64,000 nt of DNA from positions 204,600,001 through 204,664,000 of the forward strand of contig OX597814.1 in the NCBI GenBank assembly GCA_951406725.2, given 5' to 3'. This document shows positions 32,901 to 35,900 of the stretch, one piece after another; the first letter of the stretch is position 1, and every line of letters begins with the position of its first letter. Under the pieces are notes generated by a model. That model was not told the origin of the DNA and ran no database searches. It worked only from the letters and a program-made list of their open reading frames with translations. The stretch is from Octopus vulgaris. Taxonomy: Eukaryota. The translations under genes and the position numbers were made by a program.

Positions 32901-35900
32901 GTCTGGGGAGAGTCATTTTCTTTTTGTGCCTTATAATATAACACACTCACCGGTAAAATTTCCACTTTTTTCTTATTTTTATTTTCCTAAAATTTTCGTT
33001 GCGTCTTGCAACCTTTTCAGTAGCCTTTTTTAGGATTTCAGAATCTTTTTATCCTTTTTTTTTTGTTCTGCAGATGACAAATGTGGAGGATGTCCTCCTT
33101 CTAGTGGATGCAAACAAAGCCAAAACTCTGAATGGTCGTGTGAATGTGCTGACAGCTATGTTCTCACCGACAAAAGTGAATGTCGTTCTCCATGCACAAT
33201 TGCTAATGGCAATTGCCATCAGAATGCACTTTGCTCTTTTGGTCCTGAAGAAAAGGTAAGAAGGCAGTCCTTCATATAATTAATCAGGTACATGAATTAT
33301 CGAACCAATTTAAATTGCTTCTACTCTTGGAAACATTTCTGTGTCAAATAATTTCTTATATAAAATTATTTTCTGTAATATAGGAAGAAAATTGGCTTCA
33401 CTTGTGTACCCTTACTTGTTTCAGTCATTTGACTGCAGCCATGCTGGAGCACCACCTTGAAGGGTTTTAGTTGAACAAATCGACTCCTGGACTTAGTTTT
33501 TTTTAAGTCTAGTTACTTATTTTATTAGTCTCTTTTGCTGAACCACCAAGTTACAGAGACTTAAACACACCAACACCAGTTGTCAAATGGTGGTGGAGGG
33601 ACAAACACAGACTCAAAGACACACACACACACACACACACACATGACAGGCTTCTTTCAGTTTCCATCTACCAAATCCACTCACAAGGCTTTGGTTGGCC
33701 CAAGGCTATTGTAGAAGACACTTTTCCTAGGTACCATGCAACAGGACTATTCATATCAGAGCAAGATTTCTGACTATTCTTCTTCATCATTGAACCGAAT
33801 GGTCATGTAATATGAATGAATCAAACCAGTCTCAGATGATGATGACAACGACAACGACGTCAACGACGACATGATGATGATCATCATCATCATTCTCATC
33901 ATCATTTAACGCCTGTTTTCCATGCTGGCATGGGTTGGCCAGCTTGACAGGAACTAGTAAGGCCAAGGGCTGCATCAGGCTCCATTGTCTGTTTTGGCCT
34001 GGTTTCTAGGGCTGGATGCCCTTCCTAATGCCAACCACTCCACAGAGTGTGCTGGGGGGTTTTTTATGTGGCACCATCACAGGTACTTTTTATATGACAC
34101 CAGCACCCAGACTAGTGCTTTGTATATGGCACCTTGGTTTCAAGATCTGTTCTGTTGTGGTGGGCACGTCTTCCCAAGCACAGCAATACACCACATATCT
34201 TGGTCCCCTGTCATCTCCTTCAGAAGGTTCAGCATTTTGAGATCAGTCTTCAAAACTTCATCCCATGCCTTCCTGGGTCTCCCTCTTCCACAATTTCTCC
34301 CACTTTAAGTGATCAGCACATCTTTATGCAGCTCTCCTCATCCATCTGCAAATTAAGTTTACAAATGAATTTCACATATTTTAATTTCTGTGAATTACTT
34401 TCATATTTTTTGCTTTCTGTTTTGTTTTGTTTTTTCTTTTTTTTTTTTTTCTTTTTTCCTTCCATCAGATCAGTGGTCAAGCAAAGTGCGTTTGCAGAAG
34501 TGGTTACCATGGTGATGGACTCAACTTTTGCCAACCGATTGTTAATCTCTGTAATATGAACAATGGCAATTGTTCACCTCGAGCTGAATGTACTTTCATT
34601 CCTCCTCCAGGTACATTTTAACTTTTTCAAACACAAACCTTTTCCACATAAAAATAAACAGGATTCCCTACTTAAATGTAAATAGACTTGAGCAATGAGA
34701 AACGAAGTGTTTAGCTCAAGAACGCAACACGCTGCCTGGTATGGGAATTGAACCCACAACCTAACCACTTGGCCATGTGGTTTCACATTCACTTGATATA
34801 TATTTTGATAAATCTACATTCGTCAGCCTTGAGCGTCTTTGCAAAAAACGAAATCCCCTTCTTCATCTTCTTCTTCTTCTTCTTCTCCTTCTCCTCCTCC
34901 TCCTCCTCATCGTCTTCTTTTTCATCACCATCATCATCACCATCACCACCACCATCATCATCATCATTTAATGTCTATTTTCCATGCTAGCATGGGTTGG
35001 ATAGTTTGACTGAAGTCTGGAGAGCCAGTGACTGCACCAGGCTCCATTCTGATCTGGCAACGTTTCTACAGTTGGATGCTCTTCCTAATGCCAAGCACTC
35101 TAGTACTAAGCTTCCACATTTTCGTGATCTCAATTTGCAGATATTTATAATGAGAAAGCTCTTTATATTCCTTTCTTGAGACATTTTGCTCTTGTGGGAC
35201 AGACGTATCTATTATTACTATTATTATTACCTTTGCACAGCTTCTAACGCTGGAGATGTACTATGGTGTCAGTTGTTTACTACCAGCAAACTAACTTAAC
35301 ACTTCTTATTTTTTGAGCACCTTCTGGAGTATTCGAGTGGTTCCAAGCAGTGCTGTTTTCTGAAAGTGCTCCACCCTTTTTGCAGCCCCTATTTGTTCCA
35401 CGTACTTCTCAAGATTTTTACTCACTGTTCCCAGGGCTCTGACAATTATTGGTACGACTGCTACCTTTTATATCGACCACAACTGCTTAACTTCCCAAGC
35501 TAACCTGTCATATCTCTCGACTTTTCTTTCTTCCTTTTCTCTTTTGTGTTGTTGTTGTTGTTGTTGTTAGGGTCTCATATTCCTCCCACTCAGGAGAATC
35601 ATTAACTTCCACTTCCATTTCAAAATAGATGACCAATCTTTGCATGTTTTTAAAGCCAATTGTCAACTGACCAGTTTGTTCCTTGTCTTTGCTCTTATTT
35701 TAGCCAATGCCATTGTCGCTGGTCAAGTAAAATGTGAATGTTACCCGTCTTATATTGGTAACGGCACCACATGCAACCGAGACATTTTAAGTACATTGGA
35801 ATATATGCCAAGTATGCGCCTCTTTTGTGATGTAAGTATTTTTTCAACTCTCATTCAGTTTTAAAACATGAATGGCTTCTGTAAAGCCAGATCTACTGGT

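Follow-up and report, generated by a model that had tools for sequence, protein, structure and literature searches.

The window, a 64,000-bp stretch of Octopus vulgaris DNA (contig OX597814.1, positions 204,600,001 to 204,664,000 of the forward strand), was shown by splice-site fitting to carry the 3' 25 exons of a plus-strand stabilin gene. These exons are separated by 24 GT-AG introns, of which 18 are in phase 0, four in phase 1 and two in phase 2. The 5' part of the gene lies upstream of the window, and the full-length O. sinensis protein annotated as stabilin-2 isoform X1 (P0001) was used as its stand-in; the window exons match residues 751-1752 of this protein, mostly with 94-100% identity. 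The 16 upstream exons (2845..32183; P0001 residues ~751-1380) encode the end of EGF cluster 2, FAS1-3, FAS1-4, a Cys-rich linker and the start of the last EGF cluster. Exon 32031-32183 lacks two cysteines of a laminin-type EGF, both of which are present in Argonauta. A further exon with repeats of the last cluster (33074..33255) ends at a phase-0 intron that separates Cys3 from Cys4 of the penultimate EGF. It is followed by an exon of 142 nt (34469..34610, phase 0 to 1), which encodes the second half of the penultimate EGF and then the last EGF as far as one base beyond the sixth codon after Cys3, by a GT-AG intron in phase 1 (34611..35703) that interrupts the last EGF between Cys3 and Cys4, and by an exon (35704..35831, phase 1 to 0) encoding a 10-residue leader, Cys4-Cys6 of the last EGF and the start of the terminal FAS1. 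Three more exons of this terminal FAS1 (37355-37474, 38871-39002 and 41359-41481) are closest to FAS1-7 of seven-FAS1 stabilins, and the gene finishes with a 24-nt stalk exon (43401..43424), a transmembrane exon (60662..60778) and a cytoplasmic tail exon with the stop codon (62023..62172), which contains NQIY at the NPxY position as well as DTEELL, an acidic motif of the dileucine type. Pieces of open reading frames were also found on the minus strand at 30059-30481, 28962-29177, 35066-35260, 44286-44876 and 39692-40048, which are putative remnants of LINEs and DNA transposons; the stop-to-stop frame 30059-30481 overlaps a 43-nt exon (30430-30472).

The intron at 34611-35703 was analyzed as the candidate site of a missing Link module. 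The preceding exon ends with C-T-F-I-P-P-P and one G, placing the split six codons and one base past Cys3, and the following exon opens with the remainder of the Ala codon and then runs through Cys4-6 into the last FAS1. The preliminary description of the locus had proposed that a phase-1 intron splits the last EGF and that this repeat continues directly into the final FAS1; both observations held, as the intron is bounded by GT and AG and is in phase 1 from both exon ends, and the end of the EGF and the start of FAS1 lie together on exon 35704-35831. The same description had this intron filled with repeats only, which proved to be accurate in part: microsatellites, a dispersed repeat and LINE-like reverse-strand pieces account for part of the intron, but repeat content over the whole length was overstated. 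The dispersed repeat (~34924-35102), which appears to be SINE-like, has 19 further matches within the window. Spliced contigs from three of four runs (X1, X2 and X17) joined the flanking exons directly, with 34468-34608 abutting 35702-35831 and zero letters between them, so that no extra Link exon occurs in these contigs, which presumably derive from RNA; in the fourth run (X10), the length is compatible with the same junction, the row of the second exon being absent from the display.

The absence of Link, anticipated in the preliminary description, was evident both in the protein and in the DNA. Xlink (PF00193), the domain that defines the Link-module superfamily (hyaladherins), was not detected by Pfam in the full-length, near-identical P0001. 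When a Link profile derived from 100 vertebrate sequences was run against all six reading frames of the window, it gave no match (best E 6), and no trace of Link was found there nor, within the intron 34611..35703, any remnant of it. As a control, the same profile recovered four of four half-Link fragments at E<1e-17.

Pfam analysis of P0001 revealed five Fasciclin domains, seven EGF_3 domains and two EGF_STAB1-2 stretches. The octopus protein belongs to the stabilin group by its EGF clusters alternating with FAS1 domains, its terminal FAS1, single C-terminal transmembrane segment and short tail, and its place in the tree. It resembles vertebrate stabilin-2/HARE and stabilin-1, class H scavenger receptors that take up polyanions, modified LDL and apoptotic cells, in being a type I membrane protein whose EGF clusters alternate with FAS1 domains, in its Pfam EGF_STAB1-2 matches, in its terminal EGF-FAS1-TM unit and in the intron positions around the last EGF. 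In contrast to the vertebrate architecture, with Link, seven FAS1 domains, four EGF clusters and NPxY, the octopus protein lacks Link, has five FAS1 domains (FAS1-5/6 and the third EGF cluster are missing), retains a whole last EGF with a Cys3-Cys4 loop of 16 residues, and carries NQIY for NPxY. The terminal octopus FAS1 scored highest against FAS1-7, and the FAS1 domains of octopus, Haliotis, Physella, Owenia and Tubulanus corresponded to positions 1, 2, 3, 4 and 7 of the seven-FAS1 form, which occurs in cnidarians and deuterostomes (five-FAS1 proteins P0001, P0052, P0189, P0197 and P0201 compared with the seven-FAS1 proteins P0005, P0067 and P0053). Spiralians have therefore lost FAS1-5/6 and one EGF cluster. 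Bulinus P0004 has seven FAS1 domains, apparently because the stretch from FAS1-2 to FAS1-3 was duplicated later, or else as a model artefact. The invertebrate proteins annotated as stabilin-2-like (O. sinensis, Argonauta, Haliotis, Branchiostoma, Styela, Acropora and others) are orthologous to the octopus gene by tree and architecture; the five-FAS1 form is shared with spiralian stabilins, Bulinus (seven) excepted, while Tubulanus and Owenia differ from the octopus by a PAN domain in the slot and an F5/8 type C domain elsewhere, respectively. The window gene is nearly identical to the O. sinensis protein, and what the present analysis adds is the comparison at the level of introns.

The position of Link in vertebrates was determined in a C-terminal alignment of 10 invertebrate and nine vertebrate proteins. 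In the vertebrate proteins, Cys1-3 of the last EGF are followed by ~100 residues of Link and then by Cys4-6, whereas the same EGF is uninterrupted in all 10 invertebrate rows; the proposed placement of Link between Cys3 and Cys4 was thereby borne out. The vertebrate DNA examined was a single contig with a teleost-like STAB2 (L001), obtained from a metagenome scan, which ends before the Link exons. Its pre-Link exon (1442-1583) has 142 nt and runs from phase 0 to 1, and the junction at L001 1562-1585 reads, like that at octopus 34589-34612, Cys codon, six codons and G, then GT. The intron 5' of Link in this teleost contig and the octopus intron therefore match in position and phase to the nucleotide, as the preliminary description had predicted. 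The equal exon length of 142 nt is partly due to chance, because the octopus and L001 exons differ by small indels. In the penultimate EGF, too, L001 carries an intron between Cys3 and Cys4; it is in phase 0 and sits two codons earlier than its octopus counterpart. Among the six loci recovered by the metagenome scan, L001 alone spanned the site; L003-L006 were discarded as stabilin loci, their EGF matches having no relation to stabilin, and L002 (1-7196) is a contig with the N-terminal part of a stabilin-like gene.

Further information on exon ends came from short proteins, a search for which yielded 60 hits from 78 candidates, mostly single-exon open reading frames running on into introns. 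All nine short frames that end with the pre-Link exon had Gly (8) or Ser (1) at Cys3+7, corresponding to an NGT codon and to phase 1, while neither residue was found at this position in 100 full-length vertebrate proteins. The first Link exon ended with Val in phase 0 (21 of 21 short frames), and the second ended with Gly in phase 1 (29 of 29), where 99 of 100 full-length proteins have Asp or Glu. These read-through fragments include STAB1-type and STAB2-type sequences and come from related vertebrates, hence they do not represent independent events. Indirectly, they indicate that two exons with phases 1-0/0-1 form the vertebrate Link cassette within the EGF loop. The expectation that Link has the phase-1 flanks of a class 1-1 module was thus borne out on the 5' side by L001 DNA and by the nine read-throughs, and on the 3' side by protein read-throughs, namely the 29 donor-side fragments and one acceptor-side fragment (P0180). 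In P0180, the downstream exon starts three residues before Cys4 and ends at the same offset as octopus 35831, and thus the next phase-0 intron is shared as well. The octopus exon starts ten residues before Cys4 as compared to three in vertebrates, and the exact match concerns the 5' boundary only. If the intron lies at Cys3+6 throughout, the leader would range from two residues in cnidarians and four in Bulinus and Lytechinus to 39 in Patiria, with 8-10 in most of the remaining species; although the 3' boundary is inexact, the vertebrate leader of three falls inside this invertebrate range (2-39). In the Link-bearing P0213, the junction is three residues shorter.

A structure model of the fish fragment P0254 (59 rows, pLDDT 88) placed strands at Cys3 (228-231) and Cys4 (337-340), with residues 240-335 folding as a Link similar to that of TSG-6 (Z 18.5, rmsd 1.2, 96 aligned), and fold searches with this model confirmed the Link and FAS1 folds; pairing of the two EGF halves was not reported by the model. 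An earlier model from a 4-row alignment had low confidence (pLDDT 55). A PDB sequence search returned no EGF-Link structure, the match being isolated stabilin-2 FAS1-7 (5N86) alone.

The distribution of Link was surveyed across stabilins. In the 120 matches listed of 157, Link was present in 108 of 110 vertebrate-type proteins and in none of 10 invertebrate proteins. The two vertebrate-type exceptions, frog STAB1 isoforms, were rejected as counter-examples since both end upstream of the last EGF. In a profile search over 50%-identity representatives, of which the best 150 were inspected, the terminal match preceded a transmembrane segment in 36 rows. Of these, 24 are stabilins without Link, 10 carry it and two are unrelated proteins. 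Link was absent from the tunicates Styela and Clavelina, the hemichordate Glandiceps, the sea urchin Lytechinus, and from Nematostella, Owenia, Physella, Patella, Lingula, Solemya and Tubulanus. The 14 Link-bearing rows among these best 150 comprised 11 with a vertebrate name (own or of the cluster) and P0184, P0213 and P0233, and lampreys were found to carry Link at the same site as jawed vertebrates. Hagfish, sponges and placozoans were not identified among the rows sampled. Altogether, Link was found in none of 21 invertebrate stabilins from cnidarians, spiralians including molluscs, ambulacrarians including echinoderms, amphioxus and two tunicates (P0003, one of the 21, was assigned via the Sepia member of its cluster only), which is the outcome that the preliminary description had proposed for such a survey. 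When the N-terminal regions of 22 proteins were placed in a quick tree, the seven rows with Link fell together on one side of a branch with SH-aLRT 100, and the octopus grouped with the Sepia-cluster protein, within molluscs and within spiralians; this tree had no non-stabilin outgroup and misplaced the tunicates beside cnidarians. Lack of Link is hence the normal invertebrate condition and not a peculiarity of the octopus, and we infer that Link was gained once, on the vertebrate stem, between the tunicate split and lampreys. The claim that the octopus gene preserves the state before insertion was upheld for the insertion site, where that state is common to all 21 invertebrates, but not for the rest of the protein, which is derived (five FAS1 domains versus seven); it is otherwise an ordinary invertebrate stabilin and not a pristine ancestor.

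The age of the intron was addressed with protein sequences, the octopus window being the invertebrate genomic DNA that spans the site. P0215, which has 92% identity to amphioxus P0005 over residues 1-907, stops after Cys3+6 with Gly-Lys, where P0005 continues with Ala-Arg-Lys. The end of this single truncated model corresponds to a read-through of a phase-1 intron at the octopus point. In addition, the residue at Cys3+7 has a codon starting with G in 17 of 21 invertebrates, the other four having a different first base, as compared to 1-9 of 21 at seven other loop positions. This bias is indirect and comes from rows related to each other, and it would fit a conserved phase-1 intron. These data suggest that the last-EGF intron is older than chordates.

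Two other histories of the site were weighed against a vertebrate gain of Link into this intron. If Link had been ancestral in stabilin and had then been cleanly lost as a 1-1 cassette in the octopus and other invertebrates, a precise 1-1 deletion would have left an identical single phase-1 intron, and the module itself is old, since the available part of PMC12383584 reports other Link proteins in anthozoans, lancelets, Ciona, bivalves and Owenia. However, such a history requires Link to have disappeared independently no fewer than five times (in cnidarians, spiralians, ambulacrarians, amphioxus and tunicates) to leave 0/21 invertebrates with Link, and the Link-less EGF is a full six-cysteine repeat, with a canonical short loop of eight residues in both cnidarians. 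A single stem gain is far simpler because the alternative demands five or more losses, and we regard ancestral Link as extremely improbable. It was also considered that Link is a vertebrate gain but that the intron match is coincidental or due to independent gain at a proto-splice site, or that Link came by a different route and its flanking introns formed or slid afterwards. The 3' boundary is off by seven codons, other EGFs of the octopus gene also have introns in their Cys3-Cys4 loops, and a single exact match may be due to chance even with phase 1 in just four of 24 window introns. Against this, octopus and teleost agree in position and phase to the nucleotide, two further introns match as well, namely the next one downstream and the one in phase 1 that precedes the CPGG exon, and both the amphioxus-like read-through (P0215) and the PAN insertion (P0201) hit the same point, so that this history is considered unlikely.

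The function of the octopus protein was examined by analogy with vertebrate stabilins. NPx[YF] was present in the tails of 18 of 21 invertebrates, and was changed to NQIY or NEIY in two octopods (O. sinensis and the window; Argonauta), whose tails also contain DTEELL, a motif of the [DE]xxxLL type. Motifs of this type have a role in endocytosis. According to the accessible parts of the cited sources, hyaluronan binding requires Link and the stabilin-1 Link is inactive for hyaluronan, whereas heparin and acLDL bind stabilin-2 outside Link (PMC6681266); phosphatidylserine is bound by EGF clusters of stabilin-2 and integrins by its FAS1 domains (PMC7694162); and stabilin-2 uptake depends on redundant tail motifs led by NPLY, NPxY being the main endocytic motif (PMC7694162; PMC8760663). 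By this analogy, the octopus stabilin is probably an endocytic scavenger with putative non-hyaluronan cargo; the preliminary description had gone further, in that the receptor must bind other ligands, which the vertebrate data make likely rather than certain. It may bind phosphatidylserine and polyanions by EGF repeats and integrins by FAS1, as vertebrate stabilin-2 reportedly does, and would be internalized by dileucine-type and NPxY-derived tail motifs. A different reading, which concerns function only, is that the octopod protein acts mainly as an adhesion or matrix receptor via FAS1-integrin contacts rather than as a fast-recycling scavenger. The change of NPxY to NQIY/NEIY in all three octopod sequences, the integrin binding described for stabilin-2 FAS1 domains in the portion seen of PMC7694162, and the disappearance of one EGF cluster and two FAS1 domains would agree with such a role. 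Yet the same tails bear the [DE]xxxLL-type motif, internalization motifs of stabilin-2 are described as redundant in that same portion, and the EGF clusters reported as phosphatidylserine binders are retained, which makes a mainly adhesive role a doubtful, minority option.

Taken together, the locus is very probably that of a Link-less octopus stabilin in which the phase-1 intron of the last EGF is likely the ancient slot of the Link cassette, and whose product is likely a non-hyaluronan endocytic scavenger. The ancestral stabilin would have had a phase-1 intron in the Cys3-Cys4 loop of its last EGF, predating chordates. Recombination within the intron would then have brought a two-exon Link cassette into this slot, later than the tunicate split but earlier than the lampreys. 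The reading frame would have been kept because both cassette ends are in phase 1, and the EGF fold because long loops can be accommodated in the Cys3-Cys4 hairpin. The result would be a domain nested in a domain, with the last EGF split around Link. In the exon-shuffling model, extracellular modules are commonly of class 1-1, and the proposed event resembles this model in that a symmetric phase-1 cassette enters a pre-existing phase-1 intron. It differs in that the acceptor intron of stabilin lies inside the host EGF, giving a nested domain and not an addition between domains.

Other modules were found at or near the slot. Tubulanus polymorphus P0201, a lone protein prediction whose cluster has one member, has an insert of 82 residues (~1506-1587) flanked by Cys3+6 and Cys4-10, the point at which the octopus exons meet, and the ten residues 3' of the insert resemble the octopus leader. 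Pfam identified the insert as PAN_1 (PAN/apple; E 1.3e-8), and the PAN assignment is carried by this match, an ESM Atlas match (0.88) being a lead only. In Patiria miniata P0065 (~2328-2372), the same EGF loop has grown to 45 residues and is rich in Pro. There is a slightly better than even chance that the last-EGF intron is an ancient reusable socket for ligand-binding modules, empty in the octopus, occupied once by Link on the vertebrate stem, which gave rise to the hyaluronan clearance receptor, independently by PAN in a nemertean, and enlarged by a Pro-rich insert in a sea star. If so, stabilin would serve as a chassis, with its glycan specificity reset at a single nucleotide position within a host domain. 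A discoidin domain (F5/8 type C; residues 1467-1602) lies upstream of the last EGF cluster in Owenia fusiformis P0189 and is a lineage-specific gain.

A full-text literature search, covering sources other than Kawashima 2009 and Yoneda 2010, found no description of a Link-less invertebrate stabilin, of the nested EGF, of the intron match or of the PAN insertion. The restriction of the stabilin Link to vertebrates may already stand in one of these two papers, and it is visible in public domain annotations. Sea-urchin HARE-like proteins are cited as a sign of an ancient hyaluronan receptor in the part seen of PMC3581078; this reading is undercut by the three echinoderm proteins examined, which are without Link. 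As far as the available text of PMC12383584 goes, Link occurs in other invertebrate proteins, and therefore a donor existed. The section seen of PMC11788884 includes Xlink-Ig shuffling and has no match for STAB or Fasciclin, and its supplements may bear on the question; the excerpts of PMC7279005, PMC4892480, PMC8542980 and PMC514892 contain nothing on stabilin Link or its introns. The comparison provides a nucleotide-level before and after for the origin of the vertebrate hyaluronan clearance receptor, with the event bracketed between tunicates and lampreys, as well as a clean example of shuffling in which one module came to lie within another domain, at a site that may have been used a second time. 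A natural Link-less receptor and a graft point for Link also allow direct tests of the original job of the family.

Two unusual stabilin models were encountered in the survey. The scallop Ylistrum balloti has a stabilin-like protein (P0217) in which the last EGFs are followed directly by the membrane segment, without a terminal FAS1. The lamprey stabilin model of Lethenteron reissneri (P0211) runs from FAS1-7 into Sushi repeats and is probably a fused gene model, because P0343, P0345 and P0347 end normally.
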